Source of the DNA: Candidatus Omnitrophota bacterium
GTDB lineage: Bacteria > Omnitrophota > Gorgyraeia > JABMRN01 > RBG-13-46-9
Direction of reading: 5' to 3'
Assembly (NCBI GenBank): GCA_016782445.1
Contig: JADHYM010000002.1
Coordinates: 583 to 64,582, forward strand
Length of the DNA stretch: 64,000 nt
Both the position numbers and the translations under genes were made by a program. This document shows, one piece after another, positions 826 to 58,230 of the stretch. Below the pieces are notes generated by a model. The model worked only from the letters and a program-made list of their open reading frames with translations, did no database searches and was not told the DNA's origin. Each line of letters starts with the position of its first letter. Within the stretch, counting starts at the first letter, position 1.

Positions 826-1226
826 CCCGTCGTCCCCGCCATTCTGCTTCGCCGAAATGCTTGCGCTTTCGGCTTCGCAGGAATTGGCAAGTAAACATGT
901 ATATCGTTTATATTCTTCTGAGTTTAAAAGAGCCCAGCAAATATTACATCGGCGTAACACAAGATTTAGAAAAACGTTTCAAAGAACATAATAATGCCAA
1001 AAGTGGATATGCGAATAGGCACATACCTTGGCAGATAGAAACATTTATTACTTTTAAGAATAAGCAATTAGCGCAAAGATTTGAGAAATATTTAAAACAA
1101 GGATCGGGCAATGCTTTTCTTAAAAAGCGGTTAATTTGATAGTTAGGCGAAGCAGAATGGCGGCTTGTCGGTCCTGCGAAGCTGAACGCGAAAGCATTCA
1201 GCGTAGCAGACCCGTCGTCCCCGCCA
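826..1226 (+). mobile_element. Inverted-repeat element carrying a GIY-YIG gene (element body 842-1210), bounded by identical 16-bp direct repeats
   Basis: Direct repeats cccgtcgtccccgcca lie at 826-841 and 1211-1226. The left arm (842-885) reads ttctgcttcgcc-hairpin-ggcttcgcaggaatt. The right arm (1170-1210) reads ggtcctgcgaagc-hairpin-gcgtagcaga. An exact reverse complement of the left terminus (ggcgaagcagaatgg) sits at 1146-1160. The same arms occur without cargo next to tRNAs at 6789, 7023 and 54875. Confidence 0.7.
897..1139 (+). CDS. Small GIY-YIG (URI) domain nuclease family protein
   Basis: Starts MYIVYILLS..KYYIGVTQDLEKRFKEHN, a GIY-YIG type N-terminal motif (YIVY ... YIG). About 80 aa, typical of stand-alone UPF0213/YhbQ-like proteins. 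I prefer the ATG at 897 to the TTG at 861, which lies inside the repeat arm. Confidence 0.8.
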   Translation: MYIVYILLSLKEPSKYYIGVTQDLEKRFKEHNNAKSGYANRHIPWQIETFITFKNKQLAQRFEKYLKQGSGNAFLKKRLI

Positions 1227-6712: not shown

Positions 6713-6788
6713 GCCGAGGTAGCTCAGTTAGTAGAGCGCGGGCCTGAAAAGCCCGGCGTCCCCAGTGCAAGTCTGGGCCTCGGCACCA
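6713..6788 (+). tRNA. tRNA-Phe (anticodon GAA) with encoded CCA and atypical positions 18/55
   Basis: Hand-folded cloverleaf: acceptor gccgagg/cctcggc, anticodon loop ctGAAaa, 76 nt including CCA. The D-loop reads agttAgta (A18) and the T-loop reads tGcaagt (G55), instead of the canonical G18 and U55. Confidence 0.85.
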
Positions 6789-6893
6789 TTCTGCTTCGCC
6801 ATGATGCTTTCGCTCATGGCTTCGCAGGAATTCTCGTCAAACAGGATGTTGTTCCTCCGAAGCCGCACGCGAAAGCAATGCGGCGAAGAAGAA
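6789..6893. repeat. Cargo-less inverted-repeat element joined directly to the CCA of tRNA-Phe
   Basis: The left arm ttctgcttcgccATGAtgctttcgcTCATggcttcgcaggaattc and right arm gttcctccgaagccgcacgcgaaagcaatgcggcgaagaagaa are near reverse complements separated by about 17 bp. cca occurs on both flanks. Confidence 0.8.
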
Positions 6894-6946: not shown

Positions 6947-7022
6947 GCTGGCGTAGCTCAGTTGGTAGAGCAGCGGTTTCGTAAACCGCAGGTCACTGGT
7001 TCGAATCCAGTCGCCAGCTCCA
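6947..7022 (+). tRNA. tRNA-Thr (anticodon CGU) with encoded CCA
   Basis: Acceptor gctggcg/cgccagc, canonical D-loop agttggta, anticodon loop ttCGTaa, T-arm actgg-ttcgaat-ccagt. Confidence 0.9.
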
Positions 7023-7067
7023 TTCTGCTTCGCCATGATGCTTTCGCTCATGGCTTCGCAGGAATTC
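7023..7067. repeat. Solo left arm of the tRNA-linked element, joined to the CCA of tRNA-Thr
   Basis: 45 bp identical to 6789-6833 (ttctgcttcgccatgatgctttcgctcatggcttcgcaggaattc). I see no right arm downstream. Confidence 0.85.
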
Positions 7068-38854: not shown

Positions 38855-38975
38855 CGTCGTTCGGTCGCGGTGGCGTCGCGGGAATCGGTTGCGTTAATCG
38901 GCTGCGTACGATATTCACGCAACCGTCCAACGACCAACGTTTCGCGCGACACAACCGACCGACGCAACCGCAGCC
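38855..38975 (+). repeat. GC-rich palindromic intergenic element, copy A
   Basis: gtcgcgggaatcggttgcgttaatcggctgcgt...acgcaaccgtccaacgaccaacgtttcgcgcgac...caaccgaccgacgcaaccgcagcc. It aligns with copies at 54498-54610 (same orientation) and 58105-58230 (inverted). Confidence 0.85.
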
Positions 38976-53054: not shown

Positions 53055-53969
53055 ATGCATGATTTAACTATGATATTACTGGCTCCCGCAAAGGTAAATT
53101 TGCACCTTAGAGTTATCAAGAGAAGGCCTGATGGCTACCACGACATCGAGACGCTGTTTGAAAAAATAGCGCTTTTCGACAAAATAACCCTCCGGCCCTC
53201 AAAAAAAATAAAAATACGTTCTAAAAACCACAATATCCCTACCGGCAAAAACAGTCTTCTTTACAGGGCAGCCGTTGCTTTTAAGGAGAGATTCAATGTC
53301 TCAAAAGGCGTGGAAGTACGCCTCGAAAAACGCATTCCCGTAGCCGCAGGTTTCGGCGGCGGCTCTTCCGACGCGGCCAGCCTTTTAAAAGGCTTAGCAA
53401 TGATGTGGCTTGGAAAGTTCAATATGGAAGATCTTATGAAAATTGCCGGGAAACTCGGAGCTGACATACCGTTTTTCTTAAGCGACTCTTCTTTTGCCTA
53501 CGCCCGCGGCATAGGCGATAAAATTAAGCCGCTTTCTTTACGGAATAAATTCTGGCACCTTATAGTTTGTCCGCCAAAAAAGCTTCTATCCGGCGACGTC
53601 TATTCAAGCTACGACCGAAAGCGTTCTTACTTGACAAAGCGGCCGCGTCTTATTAGAATACTATCCCCCGCCCCTGACGGGTCGGGCAGGCCCGCTGCCA
53701 AAAGGGCGCTCGGATATGATATTATGGAAAGTCTTCTTTTTAATGATCTTGAACGGGCAGTTATCAAAATATCTCCTCTCGTAGGAAAGCTTAAAGAATT
53801 TATCAAGGGCTTGAACCTGCCGCATACGCTGGTTTCGGGAAGCGGCCCTGGTATTTTTAGTTTGTTCAAGGAAAGGAAGGAGGCTCTGATTGCGAGAGAT
53901 GCGCTGGTCAAAGGGCTCCCTTTTGTGAGAAAAAAGGGCTGGCAGATCTTTGTTGTATCGACTGTATGA
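53055..53969 (+). CDS. ispE: 4-diphosphocytidyl-2-C-methyl-D-erythritol kinase
   Basis: APAKVNLHLRVIKRRPDGYHDIETLF, the GHMP motif IPVAAGFGGGSSDAAS, and SGSGPGIFSLF. Confidence 0.9.
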   Translation: MHDLTMILLAPAKVNLHLRVIKRRPDGYHDIETLFEKIALFDKITLRPSKKIKIRSKNHNIPTGKNSLLYRAAVAFKERFNVSKGVEVRLEKRIPVAAGFGGGSSDAASLLKGLAMMWLGKFNMEDLMKIAGKLGADIPFFLSDSSFAYARGIGDKIKPLSLRNKFWHLIVCPPKKLLSGDVYSSYDRKRSYLTKRPRLIRILSPAPDGSGRPAAKRALGYDIMESLLFNDLERAVIKISPLVGKLKEFIKGLNLPHTLVSGSGPGIFSLFKERKEALIARDALVKGLPFVRKKGWQIFVVSTV

Positions 53970-53982
53970 AGGAGGAAGCAAG

Positions 53983-54489
53983 ATGGAAATCACTGATGTA
54001 AAGGTTGTGCTGAAGGAAGGTGTTGATAAAAAACTTAAGGCTTACGCTACGATCACACTCGACAACTGTTTTGTCGTGAGAAACGTAAAGATCATACAGG
54101 GCACAAAAGGCCTTTTTGTAGCCATGCCTTCCAGGAAATTGAGAGAAGCATGCCCTAAATGTAATCACAAAAATCCCATGCGAAGCAGGCACTGCAATCA
54201 GTGCGGATCGGCCATGCCGCCTCCGAGACAGGAGCCGCAGGTCCAGGACAAGGTGCGGCAGTCGGAACACAGGGATATCGCCCATCCCATAACCCTGGAA
54301 TGCAGAACGTATATCCAGAAAAAGGTTTTGGAAGCCTATGAAAAAGAAGAAAAATCAGGCCCTCGGCCCCTGGCAAAACAGGATGTTCCGGCCGAGAAAA
54401 AGCCTTTGTCTCCAGCACCTCCTGTGTCCCCTACGCCTCCCGTTGACAAAGCAAGGAAGATCGAGGAAGAGGGGGATATACGGCTGTAA
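53983..54489 (+). CDS. spoVG: SpoVG-family protein with an inserted zinc ribbon and a Pro-rich C-terminal extension
   Basis: MEITDVKVVL...KAYATITLDNCFVVRNVKIIQGTKGLFVAMPSRK ... RDIAHPIT matches SpoVG. CPKC-x11-CNQC is inserted where SpoVG normally has a short loop. The ATG at 53983 has GAAGGAGG upstream. Confidence 0.85.
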   Translation: MEITDVKVVLKEGVDKKLKAYATITLDNCFVVRNVKIIQGTKGLFVAMPSRKLREACPKCNHKNPMRSRHCNQCGSAMPPPRQEPQVQDKVRQSEHRDIAHPITLECRTYIQKKVLEAYEKEEKSGPRPLAKQDVPAEKKPLSPAPPVSPTPPVDKARKIEEEGDIRL

Positions 54490-54497
54490 AATAATTA

Positions 54498-54610
54498 CGT
54501 CGGCCGGGCGCGTCGCGGGAATCGGTTGCGCCGATGGGTTGCGTGGTGTAAATACACGCAATCGAACGACGACTGACGTTTCGCGCGACGCAACCGCAAC
54601 CGACAGACGA
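54498..54610 (+). repeat. GC-rich palindromic intergenic element, copy B, ending 5 nt before tRNA-Gln
   Basis: gcgtcgcgggaatcggttgcgccgatgggttgcgtggtgtaaatacacgcaatcgaacgacgactgacgtttcgcgcgacgcaaccgcaaccgac aligns with copies A and C. Confidence 0.85.
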
Positions 54611-54615
54611 TTCGG

Positions 54616-54689
54616 TGCCCGGTAGTGTAACGGTAGCACACGAGCTTTTGGAGCTCGGCGTCTAGGTTCGAATCCTAGCTGGGCAACCA
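54616..54689 (+). tRNA. tRNA-Gln (anticodon UUG) with encoded CCA
   Basis: Acceptor tgcccgg/ctgggca (U1:A72, as in E. coli tRNA-Gln), anticodon loop ttTTGga, T-arm ctagg-ttcgaat-cctag. Confidence 0.88.
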
Positions 54690-54855
54690 AATAATGAAGC
54701 ATTTCCAAAAGAAATGATTCATTATTTGCTACAGGCTTGTGATTCGAAGCGAGCGAGCGCCGACCCATAGGGAGGAAGAGGCCGTAAGTCCGAAAGGACC
54801 GGCCGACAGCGAGTGAGGGGAGCCTACGCAGGCGAGCTCTGCGAGCCGTAGTAGG

Positions 54856-54874
54856 CGAATCCTAGCTGGGCAAC
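54856..54874 (+). repeat. Duplicated 3' end of tRNA-Gln (19 bp identical to 54669-54687)
   Basis: cgaatcctagctgggcaac occurs twice, separated by 168 bp of GC-rich, hairpin-rich sequence. Confidence 0.85.
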
Positions 54875-54989
54875 TTCTGCTTCGCCATGATGCTTTCGCT
54901 CATGGCTTCGCAGGAATTCTCATTTTAGTTACATGAAGCAGAAGTTGTTCCTTCGAAGCCAAAGGCGAAAGTACTTTGGCGAAGAAGAA
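54875..54989. repeat. Cargo-less tRNA-linked inverted-repeat element joined to the duplicated tRNA-Gln 3' end
   Basis: The left arm is identical to 6789-6833. The right arm is gttccttcgaagccAAAGgcgaaagtaCTTTggcgaagaagaa. It is flanked by caac on both sides, and cca follows the right-hand copy. Confidence 0.8.
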
Positions 54990-55012
54990 CAACCATAGAG
55001 GTTTAGGAAATT

Positions 55013-56260
55013 ATGAAAAACGTAGCAGCAATAATACTGGCAGCCGGACTTGGGACAAGAATGAAGTCCTCTATCCCGAAGGTCCTGCACAAGGTTCACT
55101 CAAGGCCGATGCTTGAGCTGGTTCTAAATGCGCTTCGGAAAGCCGGAATAAAGAATAAGCTTCTTGTAATAAGCCCGGAAACACGGTCCGTGAAAAAGGC
55201 ATTCCCGTATTTAAAAGTCGCCTTACAGCCAAGGCCGCTTGGAAGCGGAGATGCCTTGCGGCATACAAAGAAATATTTTTCCCGGTTTAAAGGGGATATT
55301 ATAGTTATATGCGGCGATACGCCTCTTATAAACGCGGAGCGAATAAAATCCCTTCTGGCTAAACACAGAAAATCGCGTTCCTCTTGTACGATTTTAACCG
55401 TGGACACGGATGATCCATCCGGGTACGGGAGAATAATCAAGGATGATTCCGGAGAGGTTTTAAAAATCGTTGAAGAAAAAGATTTGCCGGATTATGAAAG
55501 AAATATAAAAGAAATTAACGTAGGGCTCTATTGCTTTAACAAAAAAGACCTGTTCGAACATCTTAAGAAAATAAAAATAAATCCAAAAAAGAAAGAATAC
55601 TACCTGACGGACATAGTAGAGCTTTTAAAAGCTTCAAAGAAAAAGGTTTCTTCGGTTTTAAGCGATAACTCAGACGAAGCCCTGGGGATAAATTCTAAAA
55701 ACGATCTTGCAAAAGCCAATGATATTATGCGAAAAAAAACAATCTCGAAATTCATGGAGCAGGGCGTTATTGTAACCGACCCGGATTCAACCTTTATAGA
55801 TACCTCGGCTAAAATAGGAAAAGATACGGTTATTCACCGGAATACCATTATTGAAAGCGGAGTTTCTATAGGCTCTTTTTGCGAAATAGGCCCGTTTGCC
55901 AGGATAAGGCCCGGAACCAGGATAGACGATAACGCCGAAATAGGTAATTTTGTAGAACTCGTAAGAACAAAAATTGGGCGCGGGACCAAGGCAAAACACA
56001 TGTCTTATCTCGGAGATGCACATATAGGTAAAGGCGTAAACGTAGGCGCCGGAACAATAACGGCAAATTTTGACGGAAAAAATAAAAATAAAACAGTTAT
56101 AGGCGATAGGGCCTTTATAGGCGTCGGGGCTATTCTCATAGCGCCTGTTAGAATAGGCAAGGGCGCAACAGTCGGAGCCGGAAGCGTGGTGACCAGAAAT
56201 AAACATGTGCCTGCCGGCAAAACCGTGGTAGGGGTACCGGCTCGGTTACTAAAAAAATGA
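55013..56260 (+). CDS. glmU: Bifunctional UDP-N-acetylglucosamine pyrophosphorylase / glucosamine-1-phosphate acetyltransferase
   Basis: AAIILAAGLGTRMKSSIPKVLHKV N-terminal motif and C-terminal left-handed beta-helix hexapeptide repeats. Confidence 0.9.
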   Translation: MKNVAAIILAAGLGTRMKSSIPKVLHKVHSRPMLELVLNALRKAGIKNKLLVISPETRSVKKAFPYLKVALQPRPLGSGDALRHTKKYFSRFKGDIIVICGDTPLINAERIKSLLAKHRKSRSSCTILTVDTDDPSGYGRIIKDDSGEVLKIVEEKDLPDYERNIKEINVGLYCFNKKDLFEHLKKIKINPKKKEYYLTDIVELLKASKKKVSSVLSDNSDEALGINSKNDLAKANDIMRKKTISKFMEQGVIVTDPDSTFIDTSAKIGKDTVIHRNTIIESGVSIGSFCEIGPFARIRPGTRIDDNAEIGNFVELVRTKIGRGTKAKHMSYLGDAHIGKGVNVGAGTITANFDGKNKNKTVIGDRAFIGVGAILIAPVRIGKGATVGAGSVVTRNKHVPAGKTVVGVPARLLKK

Positions 56261-57357: not shown

Positions 57358-58104
57358 ATGGAGAAAATGAAGTTAGGCGCCGAGCTGCGCGAGGAAAAAG
57401 GCAAATCGAAAGTAAAACATTTAAGAAAAACGGAACTTATTCCCGGCGTCCTTTATAAGGGCGGCAAGGAAGCGGTGAGTATAAAAATGAAAAAGAGGGG
57501 CCTCTACGATGCGCTGCATACCGCGGCCGGCGAAAACGTGCTCATATCCCTTATGATAGAGGGGAAGGGGGACAAGAAAGGCAAGAGGGACCACACCTGC
57601 ATAATAAAGGAGATCCAGCGTGATCCCTTGAAGGATGACATAATCCACGTAGATCTCAACGAGATTTCCCTGACCGATAAGCTTAAGGTCAAGGTTCCCG
57701 TGGTGTCGCACGGAGAGGCTGAGGGCACAGTAAAAGAGGGAGGCGTGCTGGATCACGTTATGTGGGAGGTTGAGGTCGAGTGTTTGCCGGCGGATATTCC
57801 GGAAAAAATCGAAGTAGAAGTTAGCCCCATGAAAATAGGCGACACTGTATATGTAAAGGACCTGCAGGTTCCACCGGCTGTAAAAATATTGAATGACCCG
57901 GAACTTACGGTGTTCAGCGTCACGCCGCCGGCAAAAGACGAAGAGCCCGCAGCTGAAGAGCTTCCCGAAGGTGCCGAGGAACCAGAGCTCATAGAAAAGG
58001 GCAAGAAGGAAGAAGAGGCGGTTGAAGGAGAGGGAAAAGAGGCGAAACCGAAGGCTAAAGAAGAGAAACCGAAGGAAGAGAAGAAAAAGGAAGAGAAGAA
58101 GTGA
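57358..58104 (+). CDS. rplY: Ribosomal protein bL25 (Ctc form) with a long Lys/Glu-rich tail
   Basis: LRKTELIPGVLYKGG, DPLKDDIIHVDL and both beta-barrel domains. The last ~60 residues are low-complexity E/K/P. Confidence 0.88.
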   Translation: MEKMKLGAELREEKGKSKVKHLRKTELIPGVLYKGGKEAVSIKMKKRGLYDALHTAAGENVLISLMIEGKGDKKGKRDHTCIIKEIQRDPLKDDIIHVDLNEISLTDKLKVKVPVVSHGEAEGTVKEGGVLDHVMWEVEVECLPADIPEKIEVEVSPMKIGDTVYVKDLQVPPAVKILNDPELTVFSVTPPAKDEEPAAEELPEGAEEPELIEKGKKEEEAVEGEGKEAKPKAKEEKPKEEKKKEEKK

Positions 58105-58230
58105 TTGCGGTTGCGTGGATCGGTCGAGGTTGCGTCTGGCGAAACGTCGGTCGTTGGACGGTTGGGGGTTTACACACGCAACCGATATACGCAGCCGATT
58201 CTCGCGACACAACCGCAGCCAACCGACGCA
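58105..58230 (-). repeat. GC-rich palindromic intergenic element, copy C (inverted orientation)
   Basis: The reverse complement reads gtcgcgagaatcggctgcgtatatcggttgcgtgtgtaaacccccaaccgtccaacgaccgacgtttcgccagacgcaac. This aligns with copies A and B. Confidence 0.85.

Follow-up and report, generated by a model that had tools for sequence, protein, structure and literature searches.

A 64-kb stretch of DNA from an uncultivated Omnitrophota (Omnitrophica) bacterium, hereafter the window, carries between its tRNA-Gln and glmU genes two small pieces of DNA which we read, with a probability of roughly 0.55, as the products of two successive insertions of small non-autonomous elements aimed at tRNA 3′ ends. 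The first piece comprises a leader, a structured core, and a tail that repeats the tRNA 3′ end exactly; the second, an inverted-repeat (IR) element, is lodged in that tail. This history had been put forward in a preliminary description of the window, and three observations sustain it: relatives retain empty sites, both pieces belong to repeat families found at tRNA 3′ ends, and the short caac duplication of the IR element lies within the second copy of the tRNA end. The core has a conserved, covarying three-way-junction fold.

The tRNA-Gln/glmU locus and its empty site

The genes of the locus are arranged in the order ispE–spoVG–tRNA-Gln–glmU–prs–L25–pth. An intact tRNA-Gln(UUG) gene with an encoded CCA occupies positions 54616–54689 on the + strand, the strand of all features of the locus described here (ARAGORN; Rfam RF00005, 61.9 bits), and the ATG start codon of glmU, whose product has the GlmU Pfam domains, lies at 55013. 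The 19-nucleotide (nt) sequence CGAATCCTAGCTGGGCAAC, already noticed as a repeat, is indeed found exactly in two places: a proximal copy at 54669–54687, spanning T-loop C56 to C74 of tRNA-Gln, and a distal copy at 54856–54874. The copies are separated by 168 nt (54688–54855), and chance alone would, by our own estimate, yield ~1e-6 such pairs of exact 19-mers in 700 nt. Directly 3′ of the CCA comes the leader of the first element (54690–54737), followed by the structured core (54738–54856), which is supported by a covariance model (R1, described below), by covariation and by per-sequence folds. The tail (54856–54874) is the distal copy, running from C56/G57 to C74. It is followed by the 115-bp IR element (54875–54989), which forms two hairpins, with 42-nt arms and termini TTCTGCTTCGCC and GGCGAAGAAGAA, and then by the rest of the original tRNA end (caacca) and the native 17-nt spacer (54990–55012). 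Originally the tail would have run on into CA, now at 54994–54995, and from there into this spacer. Without the IR element and one caac, the sequence reads ...ctgggcaacca, as the preliminary description had it, and runs on through 17 nt to the glmU ATG.

The first element was also said to begin with a terminator-like hairpin. An AT-rich hairpin is present at the start of the insert (54688–54705 with 54711–54728; 18-nt arms, 94% complementary), mostly within the leader, and its likeness to a terminator does not hold: the stem is AT-rich, gctacagg stands in place of a T-run, and a + strand consensus terminator scan did not report 54688–54728. The GC-rich stems described further 3′ are present, and the folding energy of a 190-nt stretch is −73.3 kcal/mol (z = −4.6 relative to shuffles). 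The arrangement is not an assembly artefact, since two other ENA assemblies carry the whole 1.5 kb without a single difference; a Logan contig reaches back only to 54892, in the right part of the IR element, and agrees fully from there on.

Comparison with orthologous loci, which had been suggested as a check, bears out the insertions. The tRNA-Gln gene lies directly upstream of glmU in 32 Omnitrophota loci surveyed, and the gap between them is a mere 6–45 nt in L014, L015, L016, L018, L021, L027, and L036 (L-numbers designate compared loci or contigs), with 6 nt in L015, 9 in both L018 and L021, 18 in L027, and 21 in L016. These short gaps agree with the reconstructed empty site, tRNA-CCA plus 17 nt plus ATG, and 54690–54993 is therefore inserted DNA; for the same reason, the leader is not native flank. 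Occupancy is patchy. Besides the window, the same core family resides at one of the 32 loci (L062), while L033 and L056 have the same site and layout with a different core family that R1 does not match. In all three, tRNA-Gln is followed by ~140–160 nt and then by an exact 18–20-nt copy of its own 3′ end from the T-loop onward. Their acceptor stems differ from that of the window, and every tail equals its own tRNA. Large gaps in L026, L035, L039, L042, and L080 were considered as possible autonomous elements and rejected, as they hold an ordinary clpX-like gene, recognized by eye from its translation. Separately, positions 1188–1270 of L026, after tRNA-Gln, read GGATTCGAAGGGAGCGCCCCGCCGAAGGAAAAGCGCC...GGCGC...GGGGCGG, like the 5′ half of the core, with neither tail nor R1 match; this segment may be a degenerate or distant core relative.

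In the first event, an element of ~167 bp (a 48-nt leader plus a ~119-nt core) would have entered the tRNA-Gln region, its 3′ end joining precisely at T-loop position 56/57 and its 5′ end at the CCA end of the gene. The last ~20 bp (G57–A76) would thereby have been doubled, such that the proximal copy keeps tRNA-Gln intact and the distal copy, the tail, retains the native junction with glmU. In the second event, the 115-bp IR element would have entered the distal copy, within its CCA and two bases short of the end, duplicating caac. The IR element came second because its caac duplication sits within the distal tRNA end; an IR element arriving first would account neither for the intact proximal CCA nor for the caac...caacca arrangement. 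One might instead take the distal copy for the remains of a tandem tRNA-Gln duplicate, or for a chance repeat. Its 19 nt are identical to the 3′ end of the tRNA, yet the 166 nt before the repeat are no closer to the 5′ two-thirds of the tRNA than chance (the best local score is equalled or exceeded in 126 of 500 shuffles), and the R1 match at E = 1e-17, together with the same module behind unrelated tRNAs, rules out a decayed duplicate, rendering this explanation highly improbable.

Two further observations concern the flank upstream of tRNA-Gln. Directly upstream of the tRNA (54497–54612) stands one copy of a third repeat family, whose GC-rich units of ~115 nt contain hairpins (...gtcgcgggaatcggttgcg...cgtttcgcgcgacgcaacc...), with intergenic copies at 38862–38975 and 58100–58225 (− strand); the spoVG–glmU spacer therefore consists almost wholly of repeats. 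The SpoVG homolog (53950–54489) carries an inserted zinc-ribbon-like segment (residues ~68–90) and a proline-rich tail, and in other assemblies is annotated at 168 aa with a later start.

A covarying core with a tRNA-derived tail

The core family was retrieved with a motif common to the window and L062, and a single scan of metagenome contigs yielded 19 loci. R1 was built from 14 other cores, with the window sequence left out. It matches 54738–54874 at 69.3 bits (E = 1e-17) over its full length (1–118 of 118), as its sole match in the 64 kb; two members kept out of the model, L099 and L105, score as well. Of 17 distinct copies, 13 have the core 17–53 nt 3′ of a tRNA and end in an 18–30-nt copy of that tRNA's 3′ end, beginning at T-loop position 57. 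The host tRNAs are Gln, Arg(ACG), Ser(UGA), Thr(CGU), and Val(CAC), as well as a tRNA 3′ end of unassigned identity in L099. Members share a layout that opens with a leader of 17–53 nt, variable in sequence and length, which begins at or just past the tRNA CCA. There follows a core of ~95–130 nt consisting of GGATTCGAAGC, P1, GCGCYGAC.RAATAGG.ARGAAAAG, the P2 hairpin, CGACAGC, P1′, and the P3 hairpin. Next comes (C/G)GAATCC, after which 12–24 nt equal the upstream tRNA. The window copy has the R1 match, all helices, the position, and the tail of this family. Its leader measures 51 nt from CCA to GATTCG (the spacer is 53 nt if counted from the end of an 18-nt match), and its tail is 19 nt now and was 21 nt before the IR insertion.

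On a raw MAFFT alignment, RNAalifold was limited to P0, P2, and a dubious GCYG:YGGY helix, which would make a pseudoknot with P1; hence a hand-defined structure comprising P0, P1 (10 pairs), P2 (4 pairs), and the outer and inner stems of P3 was tested on 17 distinct sequences. In these, 82.7% of cells pair, as opposed to 20–37% when the 3′ partners are slid, and 16 of the 29 pairs have changed on both sides, in 54 cells. None of 500 shuffles reaches the observed pairing or covariation. P0 pairs as GGAUUC/GAAUCC in the family and joins 54741–54746 (GATTCG) to 54856–54861 in the window; the first six nucleotides of the tail, CGAATC, are its 3′ strand, and it too is supported by covariation. P1 varies among GCUCGC/GCGAGC, GCCCGC/GCGGGC, GCUUGC/GCAAGC, and CCAAAUUGC/GCAAUUUGG, while P2 appears as GGCC/GGCC, GGGC/GCCC, GGAC/GUCC, GCGC/GCGC, and GGUUU/AAACC. 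In most copies, two P1 and two P3 positions hold tandem G•A pairs, replaced by C-G in others. Since these G•A/C-G swaps are stable only on the tRNA-sense strand, it is that strand that folds, be it as RNA or as single-stranded DNA. The window has the tandem-G•A version of P1 (54749–54758 with 54809–54818; five standard and four G•A of 10 pairs). A conserved purine-rich junction follows (54759–54779), of the consensus GCGCYGAC..AUAGG.AGGAAAAG / CGACAGC, and then P2 as an extended hairpin (54780–54804). The P3 hairpin (54822–54856) has the common shape, a stem, a 3 × 3 loop, a second stem, and a triloop, which stays constant despite sequence change.

Rfam assigns the core to no known class. The preliminary description had allowed for such a class at the insert, and covariance scans by gathering threshold and by E-value match none but tRNA, the best others being microRNA models far below threshold; a scan of six other loci returned no match. 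Its suggestion of a small RNA, structured and tRNA-like at its 3′ end, stands in part: covariation strongly bears out the fold, and the tail repeats a tRNA end letter for letter, but nothing there folds as a tRNA does, as ARAGORN finds neither a transfer-messenger RNA nor a second tRNA at the locus and Rfam is likewise negative. BLAST and nhmmer searches with the insert against the initially collected loci produced no further copies, and two insert motifs have 0 matches in a viral collection.

A fold so well kept raises the question of whether it serves the host. The core may be a noncoding RNA co-transcribed with the tRNA and freed by tRNA-processing enzymes, its single-stranded 3′ tail mimicking the end of that tRNA. 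It might, for instance, lure away nucleases, toxins, or mobile elements that would otherwise attack tRNA ends, or regulate how the tRNA matures, and it would be kept for its usefulness and not for its mobility. Consistent with this, the core is always on the tRNA strand and, where tRNA-linked, directly downstream of the tRNA; it has four covarying helices and an invariant junction, and its tail still equals the tRNA even though acceptor stems vary between species. Moreover, in three places (the window, L062, and L098) an IR element follows the tail and not the genuine tRNA end, a decoy-like outcome. Three such cases are nonetheless too few for a preference. A host function is also hard to reconcile with the patchy presence at tRNA-Gln/glmU (one of 32 loci with the same core family, and two more with a different core), with copies away from tRNAs (L095, L105), with tandem arrays of differing core types (L101, L111), and with the intermingling of cores and plainly selfish elements in L096. 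On balance, we regard this explanation as distinctly unlikely.

The arrays bear on how the elements accumulate. In L101 and L111 they run element-tail-element-tail, so the tail itself is re-used as a target. A dense array behind tRNA-Ser(CGA) in L096 (6538–8170) contains, in order, an IR-type element, a tRNA-end fragment, a core with its tail, ~850 nt with an open reading frame (ORF), a T-arm-like hairpin with CCA, an IR left hairpin, a truncated GIY-YIG gene, a GAATCC tail, and a further IR element; its tails match another Ser-like acceptor end and not that of the adjacent tRNA.

Where does the tail come from? Its composition indicates that it was derived from the DNA of the target gene and not carried as cargo, because similar leaders and core variants occur at different tRNAs, each with a local tail and an intact tRNA. 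The leaders CAGTAAAGTGTGCTAGG behind tRNA-Gln (L101) and CAGTAAAGCGCATAGG behind tRNA-Arg (L097) are alike, sharing the type CAGTAAAGYG..TAGG, and both core variants are found at different tRNA species. In L099, tRNA and tail alike have A57; the GAATCC half of P0 would thus be target-derived, leaving only the GGATTCG half as the element's own. The duplication has a fixed 5′ limit, at 56/57, and a 3′ limit that varies between CCA−2 and CCA+10, for lengths of 18, 20, 20, 20, 20, 21, 21, 24, 25, 27, and 30 nt. The preliminary description had seen in the insert the remnant of an integrative element that brought its own tRNA 3′ half. The evidence does not bear this out: the insert is a complete member of a ~120-nt family, its tail appears acquired, and there is no nearby integrase.

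The same duplication accompanies a second core family, unrelated in sequence, represented by structured inserts of ~150 nt in L033 (2296–2473) and L056 (2262–2428). Its motifs are GAGAACC.AAAGG, a hairpin, UAUGGGGAGCG, and GCGACAGGUU, and it occupies the same tRNA-Gln/glmU site with an 18–20-nt duplication of the tRNA end. In L033, the copy takes in two flank bases that are not CCA, which points to the gene rather than the mature tRNA as the source of the tail; in L056, the CCA is on the distal copy and the proximal copy is without it. A short ORF shared by L033 and L056 was considered as a possible peptide gene and rejected: it overlaps a hairpin with a compensatory A-U to G-C change, and is therefore read as structure.

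Inverted-repeat elements and their GIY-YIG relatives

The IR element of the window (54875–54989) is itself strongly structured, with arms 79% complementary and a folding energy of −54.6 kcal/mol (z = −6.95). It is flanked by caac at 54871–54874 and at 54990–54993, the latter followed by ca. As in the rest of its family, its termini (TTCTGCTTCGCC / GGCGAAGMAGAA) each lie within a hairpin bearing a GAA/GAA internal loop. Its left arm is 100% identical to 6789–6835 and 7023–7067 of the same window. The former belongs to a sister IR element (6789–6893, +) situated directly after the CCA of tRNA-Phe (6713–6788) and followed by cca; the latter (7023–7067, +) is a left arm only, directly after the CCA of tRNA-Thr (6947–7022). 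IR elements are also found behind tRNAs in L006, L010, L013, L062, L096, and L098, and at seven of eight sites they lie directly after the CCA (Phe, Thr, Asp, Tyr, L062, and L096 among them). In the tRNA-Gln tail, the element lies 2 nt earlier, after ...GCAAC within the CCA. An internal segment, GAAGCAGAAGTTG (54935–54947), is an inverted copy of the flank and left terminus, and its GTTG fits this displaced site. Indeed, the internal inverted copy tracks the flank throughout: TGGCGG for CCGCCA, TGGCG for CGCCA, and GTTG for CAAC. The duplications made by this family are short, 3–4 nt (cca, caac). The T-loop of the tRNA-Phe at 6713–6788 is unusual (cccag tgcaagt ctggg) and not of the TTCGAAT type, yet this tRNA bears an IR element; the family is therefore independent of the canonical T-loop.

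A longer, nuclease-bearing relative occupies 826–1226 (+). It is bracketed by 16-nt copies of the tRNA-Asp 3′ end (826–841 and 1211–1226), between which lie a left terminus with its hairpin (842–884), an 80-aa GIY-YIG ORF (897–1139; Pfam 9.5e-14), the terminus and tRNA end repeated in inverted orientation (ggcgaagcagaa+tggcgg, 1146–1163; matching 6 nt of the flank), and a right hairpin (1174–1209), all on the + strand. The nearest solved relative of the protein is UPF0213 BH0048. The same layout stands behind an intact tRNA-Asp in L010–L012, and homologous genes (64–74% identity) lie in or beside IR elements behind the tRNA-Asp and tRNA-Tyr of other Omnitrophota. Such genes were met inside or beside IR elements in the window, L006, L010, and L013 (at the start of the contig), and in L096 an IR left hairpin precedes a truncated one. 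Two features tie the families together. The degenerate GIY-YIG element of L096 ends in a core-like manner, ...GGATGACC|GAATCC plus tail, and the IR hairpins share with the core's P3 a design of stem, GAA-GAA loop, and stem. Core, IR, and GIY-YIG elements may thus form one loose superfamily of users of tRNA 3′ ends.

Several observations concern the surroundings of these elements. The 385-bp GIY-YIG unit (16-nt tRNA-Asp end plus element) is present once in the window and as two tandem units at L004 1–790, and L005 1–60 opens with a junction of right end, 16 nt, and left end; such reads must exist, and real tandem copies or a circular form therefore do too. At 12–841 of the window lies the C-terminal part (250 aa) of a tyrosine integrase, whose ORF runs off the start; after it come a T-arm-like hairpin and a lone 16-nt tRNA-Asp 3′ end. 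This is probably the right attachment (att) site of an island upstream of the window, and the GIY-YIG element stands directly behind that lone end (826–841). In L011 (282–1265), a free-standing ORF for a LAGLIDADG homing endonuclease lies between tRNA-Val and tRNA-Asp, beside IR/GIY-YIG elements, a further case of a selfish gene within a tRNA cluster in this group.

How the elements might insert, and what they resemble

Integrase att sites in tRNA genes classically run from the T-loop to the 3′ end, and the core could accordingly be part of a miniature integrative element. A circle of tail, leader, and core would be re-integrated by a tyrosine recombinase acting in trans and crossing over in the T-loop, the folded core serving as a single-strand recombination site like the integron attC or the CTX-phage attP; the proximal tRNA end would then be element-borne and the distal one native. 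Much of the layout agrees with this. The direct repeat has the expected extent and starts at C56/G57; the blocks of identity vary in length and some are mismatched (L104, L010), as fits one carried copy; in L056 only the distal copy has CCA; and the P0 helix GGATTCG/CGAATCC resembles a T-arm duplex. The arrays look like cassette arrays, the L004/L005 junction of right end, 16-nt tail, and left end fits a circle or a tandem, and a tyrosine integrase adjoins the tRNA-Asp 3′ fragment at 12–841. Conservative recombination, however, leaves the old tRNA end on the new tRNA, yet perfect local tails accompany intact tRNAs at Gln, Arg, Ser, Val, and Thr, and the family is not tied to one tRNA species, as the lineage of an att remnant should be. 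The 168 nt between the repeats are noncoding, with spoVG and glmU as neighbours and without an integrase; no homolog of the window's integrase occurs in any other examined locus or at this one. A double-stranded circle of ~185 bp would also be very small for such recombination. We therefore hold this explanation to be rather doubtful.

Under the insertion reading, the fixed boundary of the tail and its loose counterpart suggest a pair of unequal breaks. One would be fixed in the T-loop, where the element's GGATTCGAA would recognize its complement, the near-universal TTCGAATCC; a second would fall loosely near the gene end, between CCA−2 and CCA+10. The element would be copied in from the T-loop break by target priming, on an RNA or a DNA template, and the tail would be the target-site duplication. 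The enzyme would be supplied in trans, with the small GIY-YIG nuclease of the longer relatives as the best candidate for the nick. Taken further, the core may be the RNA or folded single-stranded DNA part of a nucleic-acid-guided insertion system, in which GGAUUCGAA base-pairs with the T-loop of a tRNA gene, the broken T-loop primes copying, a minimal 80-aa GIY-YIG protein nicks, and arrays grow in the manner of integrons or CRISPR (clustered regularly interspaced short palindromic repeats). We put this forward as a tentative scheme, possible though far from probable. In a variant of it, the processed RNA with its tRNA-end tail would be a decoy shielding real tRNA genes from these very elements.

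A number of points weigh against the insertion reading and the scheme built on it. No enzyme is directly linked to the core elements among the copies examined: no transposase, reverse transcriptase, or integrase lies beside any core copy, on contigs mostly of only 1–10 kb. Duplications of 18–30 bp are unusual for DNA transposases, and a duplication starting at the T-loop is classical for tyrosine-integrase att sites as well. The strong covariation and conserved purine-rich junction could equally belong to an RNA useful to the host. The core is a single copy in the window, where recent movement within the genome is evident for the IR element only. Four copies (L095, L105/L110, L101b, and L096) have tails unlike any nearby tRNA. 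Finally, in tandem arrays, the leaders of adjacent units resemble one another more closely than the cores do (25 of 27 leader positions identical in L101), which a simple model of cutting and duplicating would not predict.

Literature searches returned no description of these elements, and Rfam no match; both families are apparently undescribed. Their closest analogies lie in several known systems. With tyrosine-integrase islands and their cis-mobilisable derivatives they share the tRNA-3′-end repeat from the T-loop, the intact tRNA, and tandem accretion, but here the unit is ~170 bp, has no integrase, displays a covarying fold, and uses many tRNA species, each with a local tail. Their closest precedent is SegB, a free-standing GIY-YIG homing endonuclease encoded among the tRNA genes of phages T4 and T6 (PMC13096335). 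A small gene of this type and an expectation of selfish spread are common to SegB, the UPF0213/COG2827 GIY-YIG proteins (PDB 1zg2), and the present elements. Here an 80-aa catalytic domain without a DNA-binding domain is placed between hairpin ends and accompanied by noncoding derivatives and duplicated tRNA ends.

The IR elements recall IS200/IS605 and palindrome-associated transposable elements in their hairpin ends, their insertion by a short fixed motif (CCA, at seven of eight IR sites), and their flank-complementary internal segments (TGGCGG/CCGCCA, GTTG/CAAC). IS200/IS605 elements make no duplications, in contrast to those seen here, and neither a Y1 transposase nor TnpB was found among the few neighbouring ORFs examined, most ORFs of the window not having been scanned. 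The core resembles the layout of the TnpB omega RNA, a ~120-nt scaffold with a ~20-nt variable 3′ segment; here, though, the variable segment duplicates upstream sequence, and for an omega RNA of the TnpB or IscB type there is neither an adjacent nuclease ORF at the locus nor an Rfam match. Compared with a miniature inverted-repeat transposable element of the DDE type, the IR element has inverted ends and duplications of 3–4 nt; its longer relatives encode a GIY-YIG nuclease and no DDE transposase. The core has just the 6–7-nt inverted pair GGATTCG/CGAATCC, half of it target-derived (L099).

Integron attC sites, Cas1-type CRISPR integration, and casposons share with the core arrays a fresh target copy per unit and a reliance on structure over sequence. 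Staggered Cas1-type integration can duplicate 14–35 bp, and casposons target tRNA 3′ ends. The present duplication differs in being variable at one end and its unit in being noncoding, and no integron integrase or Cas1 was found in the few neighbouring ORFs or short contigs examined. A further resemblance is to target-primed Penelope-like retroelements and their non-autonomous partners akin to short interspersed nuclear elements: a pair of precise and imprecise junctions, a variable 18–30-bp duplication, tandems, a GIY-YIG nuclease in the autonomous relatives, and a structured noncoding partner. The host here is bacterial, no reverse transcriptase was found, and an RNA intermediate is a proposal only.

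tRNA genes are classic landing pads, and their known users are kilobase-sized integrase islands, casposons, and CRISPR-associated transposons. The users described here measure 100–400 bp, and the way in which one kind, the core elements, takes on the last ~20 bases of the tRNA before it argues for an as yet undescribed means of targeting or copying based on the T-loop. We regard core and IR elements as probable site-specific miniature mobile elements at tRNA genes; that a new mechanism moves them is a real possibility. Since copies of tRNA ends can mislead predictors of att sites and genomic islands, they also matter for genome annotation. If the proposal is true, these elements would constitute a compact, site-specific, and possibly base-pairing-directed insertion module; the very common and unexplained small stand-alone GIY-YIG proteins would gain a role; and part of the odd intergenic structure in the genomes of this uncultivated phylum would be explained.

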